39,201 bases of DNA from a virus. The translations under genes were made by a program, and so were the position numbers. A model generated the notes under the pieces. The model did no database searches, was not told where the DNA came from, and saw nothing but the letters and a program-made list of their open reading frames with translations. Below, one piece after another: positions 7,337-38,916 of the stretch. Numbering within the stretch: the stretch's first letter is position 1; each line of letters starts with the position of its first letter. The stretch lies in UHGV virus genome UHGV-0121072; one strand, written 5' to 3'.

Positions 7337-10018
7337 TTAAGCGAATGCATAGTCTGAAGACAAGACGTCTTCGATATTCAGTTTACCTTTCTTCGGAAGC
7401 TCTGGCAGCTTGTCGCGCTGGCTCTCATGAAGCTGGTATTCAAACTGCTCATAGAAGTCAAGCAGCACATCGTTGTCGCGGTAGGTCTCGACCATCGTCT
7501 CACGGACGCCACGGAACAGATACTCAGCGTCAGCCGGGATGGTACCGAAGCTATCGTGAATCACTGCGAATGACATCACGCCATACTTGCGGTGAGTGTG
7601 GACTACAGTCTTGCGTAGGTGGCTACCATCTTGTGAGTGGACGAAGTTCGGGCTAATGCCTGACTCCTGCTTGTGCTTGTCCAGCTCTTTCTTCATACCT
7701 TTATTGACTGTAGGCTGAAGGTTGAATGACCCTAAGAACATCAGGTTCAGACGAGTGGTATCCTTCTTGCGGTATTCCTGCCAGACCGGGAACCCATCAG
7801 GTGTGACCCAGTGTACCGGAAGGCAAGGCTTCAGTATTTCTCCAGTCTTCTTGTCCTTCACTTCAGCAGCCAGCAGCTTGGCAGCACCTTGAAGCCACTT
7901 CATCACGTCAACCGCAGCAACTACGGTCCCGCTCACAGCTTCCCAAATCATCTTAGCCATGAAGCGAGACGCTTGGCTTGGCTCGGTGAACATAGCTCCA
8001 GACCCTGAGTCAATCGCTGGCATCACGATGTCATCGTATACTTGGTCTGCGAATCCGTACTCTTTCGACCCGTAGGCCAGAGTCATGACTGAACGCTTAG
8101 GGACCTTACGTGACATACCGTAGGTCAGCCACTGACGGGCCAGCTCTCGTGTCCCCAGCTTGAGACGCTCGGTAATCTCACCAGTTTTCTTGTCCTCGTG
8201 AGTCACAACCTCGTTATCTGTACCGTTAACCAGCAGGACTTTAAGCTCCTCCTCAATGCGATCAGACACGATGCGGTAGATGTCTTGGACCTTACCGGAT
8301 GGCGTCAGGTTCACTGCATGTCCACCAATGTGGTCACGAAGCATCGCGCTGAAGTGCTGAATCCCAGAGCAGGACCCATCGAACGCTATCGGCAGCGAGC
8401 AGGAGTAAGACAAGCCGTGGTGCATTACGCCAGCATACTCGAAGCAGAACGCAAGGAAGCAGAACGGAGAGTCTAACTTGCCCCACCACTCAATGCTATC
8501 CATCGGTGCCTTAGCAGCAGCCATGATGTTGTCGTGGTTATCTTCCACCCACTTGATGCGCTCCTCGAAGGTGACTTTATCGACACCCGCACAGTTTGCA
8601 CCGTGGACCTTCAGCCATTTGAAACCATCAGCACCAATAGGCTTACCGACTGCCAGAGTAAGGAGACCCTTCTGCATGTCGTTACCCTGAGGGTTGAACA
8701 TCGGTACAGCGTAGACTCGACCGCGCCAGTCCATGTTGTATGGGAACCAGATGGCCTTGAACTGAGAGAACTTGTTCGCTTGGTTAACGATAAAGCTCAG
8801 TGACAATCTGCGTGACTGCCGGGCCTTCTCTCGGCGGTAGATACCGGCAGCAGCTTTCTTCCATGCCTTGAGTTCCTCTTCAGTCTCACCCACATAGTCT
8901 TCAGGCTTCAGTGGCTCCATCTGAGGGATGTCGTCAATAGGCGTGTTGTTCAACTTCTCGACCATGTTCACCACGTCCAGAACCTTCTTGTTCACTTTCC
9001 AAGGTGTATTCTGGATGATGTTGACAGCGTCATAGACTTCAGGCATGTACACGTCTTCGTAACGTGCCACCGCAGACTTAGACCCTAAGCGAATCAATGG
9101 TAACGGTCTGCGACCTTTGGCCCAGTACCCGCCGCCTACGACACCCGTCCACGGCTTAGGTGGAACGACGCAAGGCTGATAGACTGGTGCGATACCCGCA
9201 AGGCTGAATCCACGTTGTGCCATCTTCTTGACCCAGAAGTCTGACAGGTGGACCATCTCAACATCAGCCGCTGCATTGCCAGCACCATAACGCTTAAGCT
9301 CGACCAGTTGTGTGGACTGGATGACAATCTCAAGCATCTTGATGCCAACATGGACCGCCTCGGTCGGACTCCAAGTTCCCCACGCATCTTCCAGTTGACC
9401 CTGCTCCAGCATGGAGGCCTCAACCGCTTGCATGTAGGCTTTCTTGTAGGATGCCCCAGCTCGCTTGTTCAGGTTCTCAGCTATCGCCTTCTTGAAGTGC
9501 TCCTTCTCCTTGTCACGGATGCGACCGAAGCGGATTTCGTCCTCAAGTGTGCGACCTATCGCTGAGGCCATCGGTGTAATCGGTATCCCTTCAGGCTTGA
9601 CCAGCTTGGAGAGGATGACCTTCAGTATAATAACTGCAGCAGACTCGCAAGAGATACGCAGAGAGCGGTCCTTGACGGCCTTCTCTTCAGTGCTCAACAT
9701 GGTGAACGCTACGCTAGGACGAGAGGTTGACAGCTTCCCGTCTGGACCTTCATGCCACTCCCGAACGGCTTGCGCAATCTTAGGGACCAGAGTCTGCATC
9801 AAAGGCTTGGCGACCTGATTGTCTGCCAGTTCCCCGCGCTCTGTCTGGCGCTCAAGGTTCTTGATGAAACGTCGCTCGCCTTCAGTGTATGCCTCATGCT
9901 CAAGCTGAAGCTGCTTGACTGCAAGGTCTTGCCCGTAGTGGTCAGCCAGCAGGTTAAACGGCTCAATGGCGTTCGACACATCAGAGAAGTCGTGTTTGTC
10001 AATAGAGATGACGCTCAT
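7337..10018 (-). CDS. gp1: Single-subunit DNA-dependent RNA polymerase
   Basis: 893 aa; aligns along its length with T7 RNAP (FPYNMDWRGRVYA, DGSCSGIQHFSAMLRD, RSVMTLAYGSKE, HDSFGT, C-terminal ...FAFA). Confidence 0.97.
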   Translation of the reverse strand: MSVISIDKHDFSDVSNAIEPFNLLADHYGQDLAVKQLQLEHEAYTEGERRFIKNLERQTERGELADNQVAKPLMQTLVPKIAQAVREWHEGPDGKLSTSRPSVAFTMLSTEEKAVKDRSLRISCESAAVIILKVILSKLVKPEGIPITPMASAIGRTLEDEIRFGRIRDKEKEHFKKAIAENLNKRAGASYKKAYMQAVEASMLEQGQLEDAWGTWSPTEAVHVGIKMLEIVIQSTQLVELKRYGAGNAAADVEMVHLSDFWVKKMAQRGFSLAGIAPVYQPCVVPPKPWTGVVGGGYWAKGRRPLPLIRLGSKSAVARYEDVYMPEVYDAVNIIQNTPWKVNKKVLDVVNMVEKLNNTPIDDIPQMEPLKPEDYVGETEEELKAWKKAAAGIYRREKARQSRRLSLSFIVNQANKFSQFKAIWFPYNMDWRGRVYAVPMFNPQGNDMQKGLLTLAVGKPIGADGFKWLKVHGANCAGVDKVTFEERIKWVEDNHDNIMAAAKAPMDSIEWWGKLDSPFCFLAFCFEYAGVMHHGLSYSCSLPIAFDGSCSGIQHFSAMLRDHIGGHAVNLTPSGKVQDIYRIVSDRIEEELKVLLVNGTDNEVVTHEDKKTGEITERLKLGTRELARQWLTYGMSRKVPKRSVMTLAYGSKEYGFADQVYDDIVMPAIDSGSGAMFTEPSQASRFMAKMIWEAVSGTVVAAVDVMKWLQGAAKLLAAEVKDKKTGEILKPCLPVHWVTPDGFPVWQEYRKKDTTRLNLMFLGSFNLQPTVNKGMKKELDKHKQESGISPNFVHSQDGSHLRKTVVHTHRKYGVMSFAVIHDSFGTIPADAEYLFRGVRETMVETYRDNDVLLDFYEQFEYQLHESQRDKLPELPKKGKLNIEDVLSSDYAFA

Positions 10019-13408: not shown

Positions 13409-15172
13409 CTAGTGGAACGTAACGTAGGACCCTAGTCCCAGCTCGTCGTCCGTATCGTGAGTTACCCGGACCCCATTGTCCCAGAACTCAGTGTGGATGG
13501 ACTCGAAGCCTTTCCGTGGGTTCTCCATCTGTTCCTCCAGCCACTCCTCAGTGACTTCACGTTCGCCTTTGTTGGCATCCTTAGCCATCGACTCAACGAA
13601 GAACTGTACACCGATAGCCAGCGCATCAAGTCGGTCATCGTGTGCCAAGGCTCCACGTTCACGAGAGATACGGGTCATCTGGTAGAAGAGAGAGTAGATA
13701 GGGTTACGAACACCATCCTTGTCAGAGGCTGTCTGGTAGTCTTGGACGATAGCAGCAGCGTTAACGATAAGTCGGTGAGACCCCATGATAGGCTCCAGAA
13801 CGTCACAGATGCGGAGTTCTTTCTGACCCTTACTCTTCACTTCAGTTACAGCAGCAGGATGGATACGGGCCGCTACAGGCTTGAATAGCTCAAGGTACAT
13901 ACCATCACCGAAGTTACCCTCAATGACGTATTCGTTGACCTTCCACTTATGACCAATCTTAGCCAGAGCTTCCAGAGTAGAGTCTTCGTATCCACCACGC
14001 ATACCACCAACCTCCATAGCGAAGATGTAGCCGTTGAGCTGGTACAATACCGCATAACCAGTTTCATCCTTACCACGACCACTAGGGTCAATGACCAGAA
14101 TCTTCTGGGTGTATGAGCTGAACGCAGAACCTACAGTCTGATACGTGTGGTACGAGTCACCAATGAGTCCAACGTTAGGAACGTCCTCACGCTTGTTCTG
14201 ATGGTTCGGCAACCATTGGTAGACCATTGGGCTAGACGCTGGGTCTAAGTCCGCTACGATAAGGTCACGGAGCTTCAGAGGGTATTTCTCGGCATCACTC
14301 AGGTTCGGGTTAAGCATGAACTGTAGAGCGAAGCCAGCTTTACCGTAGGACAGCTCACGTTCCTTCAGGTCAGTATCGTCGAATCGAACTTCATCGGTCG
14401 GACGCCAGTAGAAGGCCTCAGGGTCCTCTTCAAGCTCTGCCTGAAGCATAGGAGCCAGACGGTCTCCGTAAGACTGCCAGTCCTTCCTGTCGCGTGGATA
14501 ACGAGCAGGCCAGATAGTAGTGGTGTATCCACGGCCTTCTAGCTCACGATACAAGGTCATCTCGTTCTGAGGAGTACCCAGATAGATGATTGTACCTCCC
14601 GGCTTCAGGATAGCGTCGAACTCTTTCACAAGCTCTGACAGGCGGTCTCTTGCAGCCTGAGTCGCTGAGTTGTTCGGAACCTCAACGTCATCGGCAATCA
14701 GGATGTCAGCACGACTACCAGTCAACTGACCAGTGATACCAACTGACTTAACAGAAGGTGAGTGGTCAGGCTTGGCTGGCCCAACGTCGAAGCTAATAAC
14801 CGCATCTCGCTGTCCCTGCTTAGGTTTGAGTTCCTGAAGCTGAGGCATGAGGTCGATGATTCGCTTGATGAATATGGAGTTAGCATCAGCTCGTTCCTTT
14901 GAGGCAGACACAATCATGAACTTCAAGTCTGGGTTGTTCCATAGTTTCCAGACCACGAATGCACACGTAATGAAGGACTTCCCGATACCACGGAACGCCT
15001 GTAAGATGAAACGCCTGTTGTCCCCAGCCGATAGTTTCTTCGCCATGTCAATCTGACAGCGAGTCGGGACTGGGAGTGACAGAGCTTTCCATAGAACAAA
15101 CAGGAAGAACACGAAGTCTGCCTTCATACGGGCAGTCATTAGCGCCTGACGCGCCACTAAGTCTTTACTCAA
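13409..15172 (-). CDS. gp19: Terminase large subunit (TTG start)
   Basis: 587 aa; [73 protein letters not shown] match T7 gp19. Start codon at 15172..15170 is TTG with AAGGAGG SD 7 nt upstream. Confidence 0.93.
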
Positions 15173-28521: not shown

Positions 28522-28749
28522 TTAAATCATACTCATTAGGACGTATCCGTCAGCGATGTCACCAACGTCAGCAATGTGGACAACCTTACGTGCTACCTGT
28601 TGTCCAGTATACCCGTTGTCCCACTCGTTCAGGATAAGCCAGTCGCCAACCTTAAAGTCCCGGTCGTTAAGTCTCAGCTCTGCTGTCTTTAGACCTAGCT
28701 GTACCGGACCAAAGTGCTGGCGGTGAATCTTCAGGTTGTGACTAGCCAT
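28522..28749 (-). CDS. Small ASCH-like (DUF3850-type) protein, 75 aa, inserted between tail tubular genes
   Basis: ATG overlaps gp11 stop (TAATG) with GGAGG SD; pattern LKIHRQHFGPVQLGLKTAELRLNDRDFKVGDWLIL...YTG...GYVLMS recalls DUF3850 proteins (from memory). Confidence 0.5.
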   Translation of the reverse strand: MASHNLKIHRQHFGPVQLGLKTAELRLNDRDFKVGDWLILNEWDNGYTGQQVARKVVHIADVGDIADGYVLMSMI

Positions 28750-29315
28750 TAGTCCCTCCCGATGTCAGACATCATGTTGTAGCGACCAGTGTCCATCTCG
28801 TACTCCATAACCTGCTGATAGAGTTCTGCTTCCTGCTCACGAAGGTATAGCTCTGACTCTTGGCTACCGAAGAACTTAGCGTTGAACTCACGGCTGGCCT
28901 TGGTAACGATGTAGTCCCTGAATACCACTGGCATCTCAGAGAATGGTTTCATCTCAACAAGCTCCACCGTTATAGGGTCGGTGAAAGTGGTTGACTGAGT
29001 GGACAGGTCGTACAGGTATCCACCCATGTTGCTGTAGTAGCTGGTGGCCCCGGCAGTCATTACACGAAGGTATGACGGTAGGAATCGAATCCTATTGTCT
29101 TGGACATCAGGTGTCAGGACAGCAGCTTCGTTGATATTAAAGTTCCAGCCTTTAGCTTGGACCTGACGATTGACACGATGCAGTATACGTTGAGCGTTCG
29201 AGACGTCAGCGTTCCCCTCGTCAAGCTGTAGGACTGCTGGTTCACCGATAGCAGCTAACATATCGTTGATGGCATCTAAGTCATCGTTAGCATTCAGTGG
29301 AATGTAGTGAGCCAT
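28749..29315 (-). CDS. gp11: Tail tubular protein A
   Basis: 188 aa from ATG at 29315 (AGGAGG SD); INDMLAAIGEP, RILHRVNRQVQAKGWNFNI, IVTKASREFN resemble T7 gp11. The track's upstream ATG (29345) lacks an SD. Confidence 0.85.
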   Translation of the reverse strand: MAHYIPLNANDDLDAINDMLAAIGEPAVLQLDEGNADVSNAQRILHRVNRQVQAKGWNFNINEAAVLTPDVQDNRIRFLPSYLRVMTAGATSYYSNMGGYLYDLSTQSTTFTDPITVELVEMKPFSEMPVVFRDYIVTKASREFNAKFFGSQESELYLREQEAELYQQVMEYEMDTGRYNMMSDIGRD

Positions 29316-29323
29316 ACTCCCTC

Positions 29324-29413
29324 CTATCTGTCGTAAGGACTGCATGGTCCAGTTAGTAGCATAGTCACCCAGAAACTAACAAATAGTCCCAAGGCTATAA
29401 GTAAATAGCACAT
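29324..29413 (-). CDS. Candidate 29-aa hydrophobic peptide between the terminator and gene 11
   Basis: ATG at 29413 with GAGGAG SD; MCYLLIALGLFVSFWVTMLLTGPCSPYDR; stop lies within the gp11 SD. Confidence 0.2.
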   Translation of the reverse strand: MCYLLIALGLFVSFWVTMLLTGPCSPYDR

Positions 29414-29437: not shown

Positions 29438-29478
29438 AAAAAAAAACCCTCAAGCACCCGAAGGCACCCAAGGGTTTT
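29438..29478 (-). terminator. Tphi-like transcription terminator after gene 10
   Basis: Minus-sense RNA ACCCUUGGGUGCC-UUCG-GGUGCUUGAGGGU (13-bp stem with G.U pairs, UUCG loop) followed by a run of 9 U; same position and style as T7 Tphi. Confidence 0.75.
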
Positions 29479-29488
29479 CATATAGTTA

Positions 29489-30663
29489 TCATTCAGTAGC
29501 AGCTAACTCAGCTTCCTTTCGAGCCTTGTTTGCCGCACGGGTACGGGCAGCTTTCTGTTGTGGCGTTAGCTCTTGCTCAACTTCAGTAAGGGACTCAGTG
29601 TCCCCTACGAGTTTGCGAGAAGTTAAGCCTCGTTGAAAACCAGCGCACCACATGCTTCAGGACGCAGACCACCGTGACCCATAGCGTACTTACCAACAAT
29701 CAGGTCACCCTGAGCATCGACGTCGCGGTCACGTTCCAGCGCCAAGTCACGCAGCTTAACAGTACCCACAGCAGAGCGGTGAGAGAACAGACCCACAACG
29801 TTGTCAATAGCAACTTTAACGTCGCCAGTAACAGTCGCCGGGAATGCGTGTTTCTGACCTGAAGCGATAGTGATACCGTCGGCACCACGGGTCTCACCAG
29901 CACCACCCTGTACCAGATGCGGAACTTCAACAACAACGAAGCCCATCACGTTACGGATGTTACCAGTCTCTGGGTCAATCAGCGCAGCATAGTTAGCAGC
30001 GTTCGGCATCAGAGCCGCGAGGATTGCAGAGTAGTTGTCCGGCGTGGTGTAGAAGTAACGGTCGCCAGCAGGAACGTAGTTGGAGGTCAGCTTCGCACGA
30101 GCAATGGTCAGTTGACCGATGATTGCTTCACCCAGTTTAGCCGGGGTATCGAGGTCAGCCTTCTTACCAACTTCCAGTACGGACGCAGTACCCAGACCTG
30201 CGATGTTCTCGTTGGATGCAGCCGGGAGGTTACACAGGATGGCCATTTCAGCAAGCACCGCACCATCGGCAGCGATAGCCAGAGCTTCACCCAACTGGTT
30301 GGAATACTCGCCAGCCACGTCATAGTGGTTCATCGCGTCTTCAATGTCGAAAATCATCACATCGGCAGTCAGCAGACCATCAATGGTAATCACTTTCTCG
30401 GTATGTTTAATACCTTTACGCTTATCGGACAGTCGCTCACCCGGAGCCAGATACACACCAGAGGTGCGACCCATGACCGGGAACTGAGCAGACTTACCGT
30501 TCTGAATGGTACGGACAATATGTTTGTCAGCAGTTACAGAGCGGCGAGTGAATGCGGTCAGGACTTCACCAGCAAATACCTTCAGGAACAACGCCAGAGC
30601 GTCGGAACTGGATTTGCCTTTACCTTGGTCTGTACCAATTTTCTGACCCGGAACGTTTGCCAT
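29489..30663 (-). CDS. gp10B: Minor capsid protein 10B produced by -1 frameshift near the end of 10A (predicted)
   Basis: Slippery G GTT TTC (29641..29635) four codons before the 10A stop; the -1 frame stays open for 48 codons and stops at 29491..29489 just before the terminator. Confidence 0.55.
29623..30663 (-). CDS. gp10A: Major capsid protein 10A
   Basis: 346 aa; KHTEKVITIDGLLTADV, DIEDAMNHYDV, ALMPNAANYAALIDPE, HRSAVGTVKLRDLALER, KYAMGHGGLRPEA match T7 gp10A; AGGAGA SD. Confidence 0.96.
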   Translation of the reverse strand: MANVPGQKIGTDQGKGKSSSDALALFLKVFAGEVLTAFTRRSVTADKHIVRTIQNGKSAQFPVMGRTSGVYLAPGERLSDKRKGIKHTEKVITIDGLLTADVMIFDIEDAMNHYDVAGEYSNQLGEALAIAADGAVLAEMAILCNLPAASNENIAGLGTASVLEVGKKADLDTPAKLGEAIIGQLTIARAKLTSNYVPAGDRYFYTTPDNYSAILAALMPNAANYAALIDPETGNIRNVMGFVVVEVPHLVQGGAGETRGADGITIASGQKHAFPATVTGDVKVAIDNVVGLFSHRSAVGTVKLRDLALERDRDVDAQGDLIVGKYAMGHGGLRPEACGALVFNEA

Positions 30664-36524: not shown

Positions 36525-36685
36525 TAGCCTTCTCCTTCTTCTTCGTTATGCTCTTTCAGAATTTCATGAATGTCTCGACTGCATGAACCACTGAGGTTTG
36601 GATTATAACCAGACTCCTCGTGTCCACACCACCAAGCTGACCGCATCAGGTCTTTGACCTCCTGCTCGCTATAAGTTTTAGCCAT
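36524..36685 (-). CDS. Candidate 53-aa protein directly after the DNA polymerase gene
   Basis: ATG overlaps the DNAP stop (TAATG) and its TAA overlaps the next ATG; MAKTYSEQEVKDLMRSAWWCGHEESGYNPNLSGSCSRDIHEILKEHNEEEGEG; below the track cutoff. Confidence 0.4.
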   Translation of the reverse strand: MAKTYSEQEVKDLMRSAWWCGHEESGYNPNLSGSCSRDIHEILKEHNEEEGEG

Positions 36686-38856
36686 TAGTGACACTCCTTC
36701 CACGTTGGTCCAATCTTACCTTCGGTATCAAGGACACATTTAAAGTTATAGAACTCACCCACCTTACGCATAGCAAGTTGAGCAATCTTGACGACTTCTT
36801 CGGCAATCTCCTGAGTACGACACGCAATCTGCAATTCGTCATGCACCCAAGCCATGTACGCAAAGTCGCCTTCCCAGCCGTGAACATACCCTGCCTCTTC
36901 GAGCATACGTTCAGTCTCCACAATCCAGTGCTTACAGACTACCGCACCATCACCTTGAAGTAATGCGTTCAGTGCTGAGTGTGGCGACCGGATGTGGATA
37001 CGGCGACCATCAAGTCCACGCAACCAACGGCGTTTCCACTTGACGATGTTCTCTCCGTCCACCCACTTAGAGTCTGAGATTAACGTACTACTAACAGCTT
37101 CCCTGAGGTCTTTGATGGCTGGTGTACCCTCAATGAATTTCTTCATGAGAGCTGAACCTTCCTTCTTACCGCCTCCGACTATCAGTCCAATCTTAGCGGC
37201 CCCTGCACCATACAGGAACGCATAGATGAACGTCTTGGCGTTGTTACGGAAAGCCTCATGATCGTGGTTCGATTTATCGCGTGGGACGTTAGGTGCTAAC
37301 CCAGCGTTTACTGCGTTGGCCCAGTGGATGTCACCTTCTACCACAGTCTTCGCATAGTCACCACCATCAAACGGAGCCGCTCGGTTCCCCAGACAACGAA
37401 GCTCAAGACCTGAGGCATCCACGCCTACTTGAATCCAAGGGTCTGGCTTACCGTCCTTCTTGTTCCACGCTGCACCGAAAGCACCACGGCAAGTCTCACC
37501 ATATGGGGCACCATTAGCCGGGACCTGAGCCATGTTTGGTGAACTATGGGTCGCACGTCCGGTTACTGCCCCGCATGGGTTGATTGAACCGTGCATACGT
37601 CCGTCTGGACCTACAAGTTTCAACCATGCGTTCTTACCTTCAGCCGCCTGACCGATGCGCTTCTGGACTACCAGATACTCACGGACCAGCTCTACGCAAG
37701 CCTGAGCCTCTGCGTCTGGCAACTTAACGTGTTCTAACGTCTCGTCATCGACTACAGGTTTACCAGTGTCAGTGAAGTCAACAGGCTCCCAGCCACGCTC
37801 CATCAGGACTTTCGCTAAGTGGTCTCCGCTTCCCGGATTAAACTCAACGTAAGTGATTGGCGTGAATGGTGCTCCTTCCATCGTGTCTCGCGTATCGAGT
37901 TCACAAGGTTCAAGACCTAAGCGTTGAGCTTTGTTCTTCGGCTTCTTAAAGATGCCACCGACCTTGGGATACACGACTCTCGGATACTTCGGGAGGTCCT
38001 TACCTGTCCGTGGATGCCTGAAGAACTCCTTGCCTCCCTTCGGTGCATACCAGCTACCGAAAGTCGAACGCAGCTTGTCCAGCAACTCCGCACGTTTGAC
38101 GGTGAGTTCACGATATAAGCCTTCGACCATCTCGGTGTTCATCGGATAGCCGTTACGCTCCATCTTCGCACAGGTCCACGCAGCATCATGTTCCAGACGC
38201 AACGCATAAATCTGTTCGAAAGCGAACTGTCCAGACTGGAAGTAATACTTGTCAGTCAGGAACTTCTTGAACAATGCCAGTGTGACCACAACGTCTTGAA
38301 CGTTATAGTCCAGCATCTCCTGAGACGGGAACAACCATTCGTCCCCAGACTTATATTCGATACCTTCGGCCTTGCACTTGGCAACGTAATCGTGTTTGTA
38401 TTCACCCTTCATCTCACCTAGACGATAGCCCCAAGCCTCAAGAGACTGGCGTCCCATCATCTTAGGTGGAAGACGACCAGATTTCACCGCGCCCATGTCT
38501 GAGAACTTAATGTTTGGATACATCAAGCGGCCCAGCACCAAGGTATCAATCATCTTGTGTTTCGGGAAGTTAAAACGTTTCCCAAAGTACAGACGTTTCA
38601 GCTTGTCAATAGCCGGGACGTCATAGTTGATACCGTTGTGAAATACCAGCATACCATCAGGCGATGCGGCAATCTCTTCCACTTTATGAACATACTCTTT
38701 GAAGCCACCGACGATACCGACCATCGGCGCTACCCCATACTTAAGGGTCTCATTCGACTCGGCATTAATCAGGACCCCACAATGGAACTGGGACACGGTG
38801 TCAAGGAGACCGTTTGTCTCGATGTCCGAACCCCAAATATCCTTAAGGTCAAACAT
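36685..38856 (-). CDS. gp5: DNA polymerase (family A, with 3'-5' exonuclease domain)
   Basis: 723 aa from ATG at 38856 (GGGGGA SD); DIETNGLL, FHNGINYDVPAI, QDVVVT, SGSGDHLAK-region, RAAPFDGGDYA, YMAWVHDE match T7 gp5. The track's longer ORF starts at an upstream GTG. Confidence 0.96.
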   Translation of the reverse strand: MFDLKDIWGSDIETNGLLDTVSQFHCGVLINAESNETLKYGVAPMVGIVGGFKEYVHKVEEIAASPDGMLVFHNGINYDVPAIDKLKRLYFGKRFNFPKHKMIDTLVLGRLMYPNIKFSDMGAVKSGRLPPKMMGRQSLEAWGYRLGEMKGEYKHDYVAKCKAEGIEYKSGDEWLFPSQEMLDYNVQDVVVTLALFKKFLTDKYYFQSGQFAFEQIYALRLEHDAAWTCAKMERNGYPMNTEMVEGLYRELTVKRAELLDKLRSTFGSWYAPKGGKEFFRHPRTGKDLPKYPRVVYPKVGGIFKKPKNKAQRLGLEPCELDTRDTMEGAPFTPITYVEFNPGSGDHLAKVLMERGWEPVDFTDTGKPVVDDETLEHVKLPDAEAQACVELVREYLVVQKRIGQAAEGKNAWLKLVGPDGRMHGSINPCGAVTGRATHSSPNMAQVPANGAPYGETCRGAFGAAWNKKDGKPDPWIQVGVDASGLELRCLGNRAAPFDGGDYAKTVVEGDIHWANAVNAGLAPNVPRDKSNHDHEAFRNNAKTFIYAFLYGAGAAKIGLIVGGGKKEGSALMKKFIEGTPAIKDLREAVSSTLISDSKWVDGENIVKWKRRWLRGLDGRRIHIRSPHSALNALLQGDGAVVCKHWIVETERMLEEAGYVHGWEGDFAYMAWVHDELQIACRTQEIAEEVVKIAQLAMRKVGEFYNFKCVLDTEGKIGPTWKECH

Positions 38857-38877
38857 GGTTAATCCCCCGTTTAATCT

Positions 38878-38916
38878 AATCATAAAGGCCACTCGCTGTG
38901 AATGACCTTGAGTCTA
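38878..38916 (-). promoter_or_regulatory. Conserved stem-loop, candidate RNase III site (upstream of gene 5)
   Basis: aatcataaaggccac tcgctgtga atgaccttgagtcta, third near-identical copy of the family. Confidence 0.5.

Follow-up and report, generated by a model that had tools for sequence, protein, structure and literature searches.

The 3' end of the major capsid gene in the virus genome UHGV-0121072 raises the question of whether some ribosomes shift into the -1 frame just before its stop codon and so make a longer capsid protein, 10B, beside the usual 10A. We addressed this question on the whole stretch of 39,201 nt (hereafter, the window) and on a comparison set of ~110 related loci, including annotated records. 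The original prediction had proposed an arrangement like that of T7, whose 10A/10B -1 frameshift was reportedly described by Dunn and Studier in 1983 and by Condron, Atkins and Gesteland in 1991. In our reading, the locus very probably carries the programmed -1 ribosomal frameshift of gene 10 of the T7-group phages. The features concerned are the following.

30663..29623, minus strand: gene 10A, major capsid protein of 346 aa, ending in ...GALVFNEA and the stop codon (ORF list and Pfam)
29641..29635, minus strand: slippery heptamer G_GUU_UUC (GGTTTTC), G GTT TTC in the 0 frame (read from the sequence)
29635..29489, minus strand: -1 extension of 10B, 48 codons plus TGA (reading frame and homology)
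29628..29575, minus strand: predicted two-tier hairpin, candidate 3' stimulator, starting 6 nt 3' of the heptamer (RNA fold)
29479..29438, minus strand: Tphi-like terminator (fold and alignment to the annotated T7 Tphi)
29660..29480, minus strand: Berlinvirus-type recombinant segment, with the end of 10A, the slip site, the hairpin, the tail and the start of the terminator (identity per 50 nt)
10018..7337: RNA polymerase-sized ORF (size and order alone)
38883..36685: DNA polymerase-sized ORF (size and order alone)
15139..13409: terminase-sized ORF (size and order alone)

Slip site and -1 reading frame

The window phage is a K1F-like Kayfunavirus, as Kayfunavirus (K1F-like) coliphages are ~94% identical to 25 kb of the window, over ~90% of the length, and the nearest deposited Kayfunavirus is ~6% different from it. 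The genome is reverse-complemented and circularly permuted with respect to the T7 convention, and the genes of the capsid region lie on the minus strand. The 10A product matches the Pfam family PF21703 (Gp10A-like, E 6e-104) and solved capsid chains including T7 10A (E 2e-145), and is 97-99% identical to the capsid proteins of the K1F group. Exactly the same 10A protein is encoded on at least nine metagenomic contigs, each of ~39 kb, and the three of these that we read reproduce the window identically from 29760 to 29300 (the L120 contig stops at ~29329). The phage is recurrent in metagenome assemblies, one of which is labelled human gut.

The heptamer G GTT TTC had been placed at 29641..29635, just before the 10A stop, and both its coordinates and its phase on the minus strand were verified. 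It is followed by AAC GAG GCT TAA, with the 10A stop at 29625..29623, three sense codons beyond the heptamer. That this is the heptamer of T7 had been proposed and proved correct: T7 reads G GTT TTC AAA GTG GAG TAA, also with three sense codons before the stop. After a slip the sequence would be read GGT TTT CAA CGA GGC..., a frame that stays open for 48 codons, as predicted, and ends at the TGA at 29491..29489, adding the 48 residues QRGLTSRKLVGDTESLTEVEQELTPQQKAARTRAANKARKEAELAATE. The predicted junction peptide of the window 10B is YAMGHGGLRPEACGALVFQR. The fused protein, join(30663..29635, 29635..29489) on the minus strand, would have 391 aa and 41.2 kDa vs 36.3 kDa for 10A, and the calculated difference of 4.95 kDa agrees with the ~5 kDa expected beforehand. 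The annotation of this genome should carry that joined 10B CDS. Existing records vary: 10B is a joined CDS in T7 and is annotated as arising from ribosomal frameshifting in Kvp1, and most Kayfunavirus records have no joined 10B, those of K1F, vB_EcoP_F, SP7 and PRF-SP2 having 10A only.

Judged on the window alone, the heptamer and the open frame both fall short of significance. GGTTTTC occurs twice vs 4.3 expected occurrences, a 48-codon open frame has P ~0.09 under the triplet frequencies of the genome, and in 12 of the 28 long genes the -1 frame remains open for 45 codons or more beyond the stop, mostly because the next gene sits in that frame. We therefore took significance from conservation across genomes. 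GGTTTTC is present in all 26 Kayfunavirus-level relatives, and the same heptamer is found in T7, K1F and Kvp1. A -1 frame closed in close relatives had been named as an outcome that would speak against 10B; we found it open for at least 44 codons beyond the 10A stop in 25 of these 26 sequences. Relatives with GTCTTC or GTATTC at the site mostly have short -1 frames, and BA14 has a different site, G GTT TTA AAA AAG, its record saying that the product is possibly translated via a slippery sequence. For the shift motif of T7 gene 10, the Atkins 2016 review lists G_GU in the role of X_XX (PMC5009743).

The window tail belongs in one family with the 10B tails of T7, Berlinvirus and K1F, and it matches PHROG 12582 ('head protein') with an E-value of 1.7e-19; a Pfam search with the 48 residues gave no match. 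Its protein is identical to Kvp1 10B at 47 of the 48 positions, the single difference being QR in the window vs QQ in Kvp1, from an A to G change at 29631, and downstream of the 10A stop the DNA of the two tails agrees at every position (100%). When 36 distinct tail sequences are compared, the amino acid is invariant in 12 of 14 columns of the core LTPxQKAARTRAAN, and the extra states seen in the core are 28 synonymous vs 2 amino-acid ones. Third codon positions in the core are free, with Ala written by all four of its codons and Arg as CGT, CGC, CGG and AGA. Only when read in the -1 frame does the core give a dN/dS ratio of 0.04-0.12 (Nei-Gojobori); the relation is reversed in the other two, pN (0.19-0.38) exceeding pS (0.04-0.18). 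The -1 tail is under purifying selection in the family. Given the conservation of the core, its dN/dS and the PHROG match, we regard translation of the -1 frame within the family as settled, and the proposed T7-like arrangement with a functional 10B is supported by the tail homology together with this selection. Because the basic motif LTPxQKAARTRAAN(K/R)A is conserved, it argues for a specific interaction of the tail rather than for a mere spacer.

One relative departs from the rule. In vB_EcoP_F (L011 / L118, NC_047808), a net 1-nt deletion beside the 10A stop shuts the -1 frame after 15 residues, and a fully intact K1F-type tail remains in the +1 frame. Either the sequence is in error there, or 10B was lost recently, or the tail is reached by a different shift; if the deletion is real, 10B would be dispensable in at least one relative.

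Local hairpin and terminator

Bacterial -1 frameshift sites in general have a 3' RNA structure 5-9 nt from the slippery site, a rule that is not established for T7. In the window, the RNA following the heptamer is predicted to fold into a hairpin of two tiers. The basal stem GCUUAACUUC/GAAGUUGAGC pairs 29628-29619 with 29584-29575 and holds the 10A stop codon within its 5' arm, and the apical stem GUAGGGGAC/GUCCCUUAC pairs 29608-29600 with 29594-29586 around the loop ACUGA. The 90-nt fold has -27.4 kcal/mol and a z-score of -2.5, and the 80-nt fold a z-score of -3.3. In 11 distinct Berlin-type sequences, the pairing of the hairpin is retained in 99% of cells vs 29-53% in slid controls, and four hairpin pairs are changed on both sides, most of the double changes coming from one divergent sequence, L029. 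In this covariation test the structure was taken from the window itself, and both hairpin arms are also coding. Within-group differences fall in the loop or preserve the pairing. The two-tier hairpin, which the original prediction did not contain, thus appears to be kept by compensatory changes, and lying 6 nt downstream of the heptamer, it would act as a local stimulator of the shift. A hairpin is predicted in a similar place in T7-type cassettes, in T7 itself 4-5 nt past the heptamer, and is missing from K1F-type cassettes, the fold for K1F giving no significant local hairpin (z 0.0). An Rfam scan of the whole window gave no family at the gathering score. The Kvp1 paper makes no mention of a local hairpin and describes a 'pseudoknot' 144 bp downstream (PMC2579914), which we find to be the terminator. 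In the IMG/VR genome L093 (38,616 bp), the basal stem has lost a pair through a G to T substitution on its 3' side; the same substitution makes a -1 TAG, and the tail ends early there, after ...SLTEV.

A terminator hairpin 3' of the TGA had been predicted correctly, and only the gap from the TGA to the stem needs the trivial correction from 10 to 9 nt. The hairpin (29479..29442) has 17 pairs and the loop UUCG, with -23 kcal/mol and a z-score of -3.7, and is homologous to T7 Tphi according to the alignment. A run of nine T follows at 29446..29438, its first five T lying inside the terminator stem. Of the 46 sequences with the tail family of the window, 45 have a recognisable terminator; in the remaining one, none was seen within 100 nt. 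The 5' arm carries CCCC in 44 of the 45 terminators, and the exception is the window, with ACCC/GGGU in place of CCCC/GGGG, its arms being AAAACCC / GAGGGUUUU vs AAACCCC / GAGGGGUUU in the 44 relatives. The change from C-G to A-U is compensatory, so that the hairpin is kept and CCCC is lost. This CCCC has been described as involved in T7 frameshifting (Atkins review, PMC5009743), and the departure from T7 at the implicated bases is a further point that goes beyond the original prediction. The terminator would contribute to the shift as reported for T7, possibly less here because CCCC is ACCC in the window; with CCCC missing, the frameshift efficiency could therefore be below that of T7 or Kvp1. 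We also looked for a simple pairing partner of the terminator CCCC and rejected the idea: GGGG is present in the T7 and Berlin-type local hairpins and absent in K1F, and no consistent long-range pairing emerged. A natural variant at the terminator CCCC could help resolve the long-range stimulation of T7 gene 10 frameshifting.

The same differences bear on another reading, namely that the window holds an inherited cassette that no longer works, in which the spacer change and the ACCC terminator have brought slipping down to background and the frame is open only owing to its recent acquisition. The window terminator is the one among 45 that lacks CCCC, the A to G change at 29631 lies 4 nt past the heptamer in comparison with Kvp1, and the tail, being identical to Kvp1 in its DNA, is too young to show selection of its own; loss of the tail from the -1 frame is moreover possible, as vB_EcoP_F suggests. 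However, the heptamer and the whole local hairpin are intact in the window, the terminator change is compensatory with the hairpin preserved, and the occurrence of the same sequence in at least three samples speaks for a successful lineage. In addition, the T7 heptamer put back on a helper plasmid served to drive -1 frame EYFP fusions for display (PMC1635266). We accordingly consider a dead cassette improbable, and retain a working gene 10 frameshift as the preferred reading.

Proposed mechanism and precedents in virions

The closest experimental precedent is Kvp1, for which the virion mass spectrometry suggested with the original prediction has in effect already been published. In MALDI MS of Kvp1 virions, Lingohr et al. 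(2008) obtained 70% coverage of Gp10 from a 43.6 kDa band, together with three extra peptides of m/z 2244.123, 2372.219 and 2692.310, and concluded that a -1 frameshift occurs at TTTTCA (PMC2579914). The window encodes LVGDTESLTEVEQELTPQQK, with a calculated MH+ of 2244.124, and KLVGDTESLTEVEQELTPQQK, with a calculated MH+ of 2372.219, which equal the first two Kvp1 peptides. By an assignment made in the present analysis, the third mass is that expected of YAMGHGGLRPEACGALVF-QQGLTSR, the junction peptide of Kvp1, when its Cys is carbamidomethylated and its Met oxidised (2692.308), and this would therefore place the shift at the Phe codon. For fused 10B in virions, then, Kvp1 is the precedent, and two of its three peptides are encoded exactly by the window. 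In T7, the gene 10 frameshift takes place in ~10% of translations (PMC1635266), and in K1F the gene10b frameshift product serves for capsid display of GFP and an adhesin (PMC6277420, PMC13370021). Since display on T7 and K1F capsids normally uses the C-terminus of 10B, this end should offer the same engineering handle in the window phage. The 10A/10B frameshift of the window is very probably functional; it is an already known feature, of which a version has been demonstrated in Kvp1.

We propose the following course of events. The majority of ribosomes on the late capsid mRNA would read G GUU UUC AAC GAG GCU UAA and release 10A of 346 aa. A minority would move one base back on G_GUU_UUC, where the Val and Phe tRNAs would re-pair on GGU UUU, so that C29635 would be used twice, the second time to open the following codon, giving CAA CGA GGC.... 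After 48 further codons these ribosomes would meet the UGA just before the terminator and release 10B of 391 aa, which would co-assemble into the capsid as a minor subunit with its charged tail on the outer surface. That slipping occurs in the window phage is what we infer.

The tail could in principle be made unfused to the capsid protein, as a separate protein of 54 aa starting at a -1 frame ATG at 29653, since the ORF 29653..29489 does begin with ATG and the records of Yepe2 and vB_YenP_AP5 give 10B as a separate CDS. This ATG, however, has no Shine-Dalgarno sequence (upstream it reads GGTCTGCGTCCTGAAGC) and is a by-product of the Berlin-type codons GCA TGT for Ala-Cys; T7 and K1F lack it (GCx GCA GG), yet keep a homologous tail. 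The Kvp1 tail peptides, moreover, came from the same 43.6 kDa band that gave 70% coverage of Gp10 (PMC2579914), with one mass fitting the junction peptide by our assignment, which makes an unfused tail highly improbable.

A shift at the RNA level, in which the phage RNA polymerase would slip on the T run and a fraction of the mRNA, shorter by one U, would give 10B, has the same protein outcome and is more plausible in some relatives with longer runs, such as BA14 with its seven-A run (TTA AAA AAG). Productive polymerase slippage needs ~7-9 identical bases, and the run at the window site has four T only. What is conserved, furthermore, is an in-frame tandem-slippery arrangement with a hairpin 6 nt downstream, which is how sites of ribosomal -1 frameshifting are built, and the literature handles T7 gene 10 as ribosomal frameshifting (PMC5009743); we give polymerase slippage hardly any weight, and keep to the ribosomal shift at G_GUU_UUC.

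Exchange of the capsid C-terminal module

The slip site, tail and terminator start of the window form a Berlinvirus-type cassette within a K1F-like genome. Per 50 nt, identity to K1F is 82-100% down to ~29650 and drops to 54-70% over the cassette; with Kvp1 the trend is the opposite, reaching 98-100% in the cassette. The stretch from ~29655 to ~29480 agrees at 98-100% with Berlinvirus phages (Kvp1, 285P, FE44, BA14 and others). The left crossover falls within 29661-29653, at the end of a stretch encoding KYAMGHGGLRPEA that is near-identical in both genera. The right boundary lies inside the terminator, whose loop UUCG is, like the downstream sequence, K1F-like or vB_EcoP_F-like. A search of the phage collection for the hybrid junction gave nothing above 87% identity, and IMG/VR held no exact junction. 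We considered an assembly chimera and rejected it: the identical sequence was found in three samples, with contig names of the NODE_, k119 and k99 types that indicate different assemblers and k-mer sizes, and since three independent assemblies carry the identical sequence, an artefact of assembly is ruled out. The tail is the Berlinvirus version and not that of K1F, which is another point beyond the original prediction.

Kvp1 shares with the window GGTTTTC, the local hairpin, the length of the tail and the distance from tail stop to terminator, but differs in the capsid gene body, where, the window being a Kayfunavirus, identity per 50 nt is no more than 56-88%. It also differs in the one base after the heptamer, by which the window has R for Q in 10B and E for K in 10A, and in the terminator, which has CCCC/GGGG and the loop UUCGCG in Kvp1 vs ACCC/GGGU and UUCG in the window. 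T7 has in common with the window the heptamer, the three sense codons to the stop, the predicted hairpin after the heptamer, a homologous tail core (TPAQEAARTRAANKARKEAELAA), and a tail stop just before a homologous terminator; however, its tail has 56 new residues with an N-terminal half unlike that of the window, and more than 200 nt separate its shift site from the terminator (PMC5009743) vs ~155 nt in the window. K1F agrees in genus, in the capsid body (97% identical), in the heptamer and in a 48-residue tail with the core TPQQKAARTRAAN, whereas outside the core its tail, QPSGVSTFSQPNVATVAAAPEEE...RAAKLAESNN, departs from that of the window.

In T3-type phages, too, the capsid gene ends with a -1 frameshift, which there adds an Ig-like domain as a surface-exposed C-terminal module (PMC5009743), and many Kayfunavirus relatives with the heptamer of the window carry such modules of 87-94 residues. 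The window tail differs from these in being short, charged and probably helical, with neither an Ig-like domain nor a Pfam match: an Ig-like domain (e.g. Big_2) of ~80-90 residues is absent from its 48 residues, while L027 and L043/L056 do match Big_2. The T3 shift, moreover, takes place at lysine codons, not phenylalanine (PMC2579914, PMC5009743).

Within Kayfunavirus, at least three alternative modules follow the same heptamer: the K1F-type tail of 48 residues; modules of 87-94 residues, which are either PHROG 7473 without a Pfam match or Big_2; and the Berlin-type tail, as in the window. Extensions of 91-94 residues in the -1 frame, with beta-strand-like, Ig-like sequence features, follow the same heptamer in L012-L022, L073, L074, L019-L021 and L069. 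The one representative of these that was tested, L013, matches PHROG 7473 (unknown function) and no Pfam family, and L027 has a Big_2 module in place of the PHROG 7473-type one. The module of L012 is truncated, its frame continuing across the terminator into the small hydrophobic ORF described below. In two IMG/VR sequences (L043, 3300034349_000001; L056, 3300034127_000003), the -1 frame after G GTT TTT continues for more than 400 codons, off the end of the locus, and contains a Big_2 domain (E 9e-12) and then a region with a FEGDSLT motif reminiscent of GDSL/SGNH hydrolases. Judging from the sequence of this extension, frameshifting may here link an enzyme to the capsid.

A wider reading would be that the slip site, hairpin, tail and terminator make up an exchangeable capsid-decoration cassette, which recombines between T7-like genera at the invariant stretch coding for KYAMGHGGLRPEA. 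We put this forward as tentative, and consider it rather unlikely. If it were true, the window would be a natural Kayfunavirus/Berlinvirus hybrid without the terminator CCCC, and hence a ready-made test of whether the local hairpin or the long-range effect of the terminator is the real stimulator. For biology the gain is small, chiefly one more case in which the C-terminal module of the capsid protein has been swapped; together with the conserved hairpin and the ACCC variant of the terminator, this exchange is a minor addition to a known feature.

Two small reading frames near the cassette, both on the minus strand, are also worth recording. A gene of 75 residues at 28522..28749, sited between gene 11 and gene 12, has a DUF3850 match and a weak ASCH match in the precomputed Pfam calls of the identical contig L119, and K1F has no counterpart of it, gene 12 coming directly after gene 11 there. 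Between the terminator and gene 11, at 29324..29413, lies a strongly hydrophobic ORF of 29 codons, MCYLLIALGLFVSFWVTMLLTGPCSPYDR, for which searches of Pfam and PHROGs gave no match. It takes the GGAG ribosome-binding site and the ATG that gene 11 uses in K1F, and the gene 11 start is then at 29315. The homologous region of vB_EcoP_F has no annotated CDS, and L012 encodes a peptide related to that of the hydrophobic ORF.
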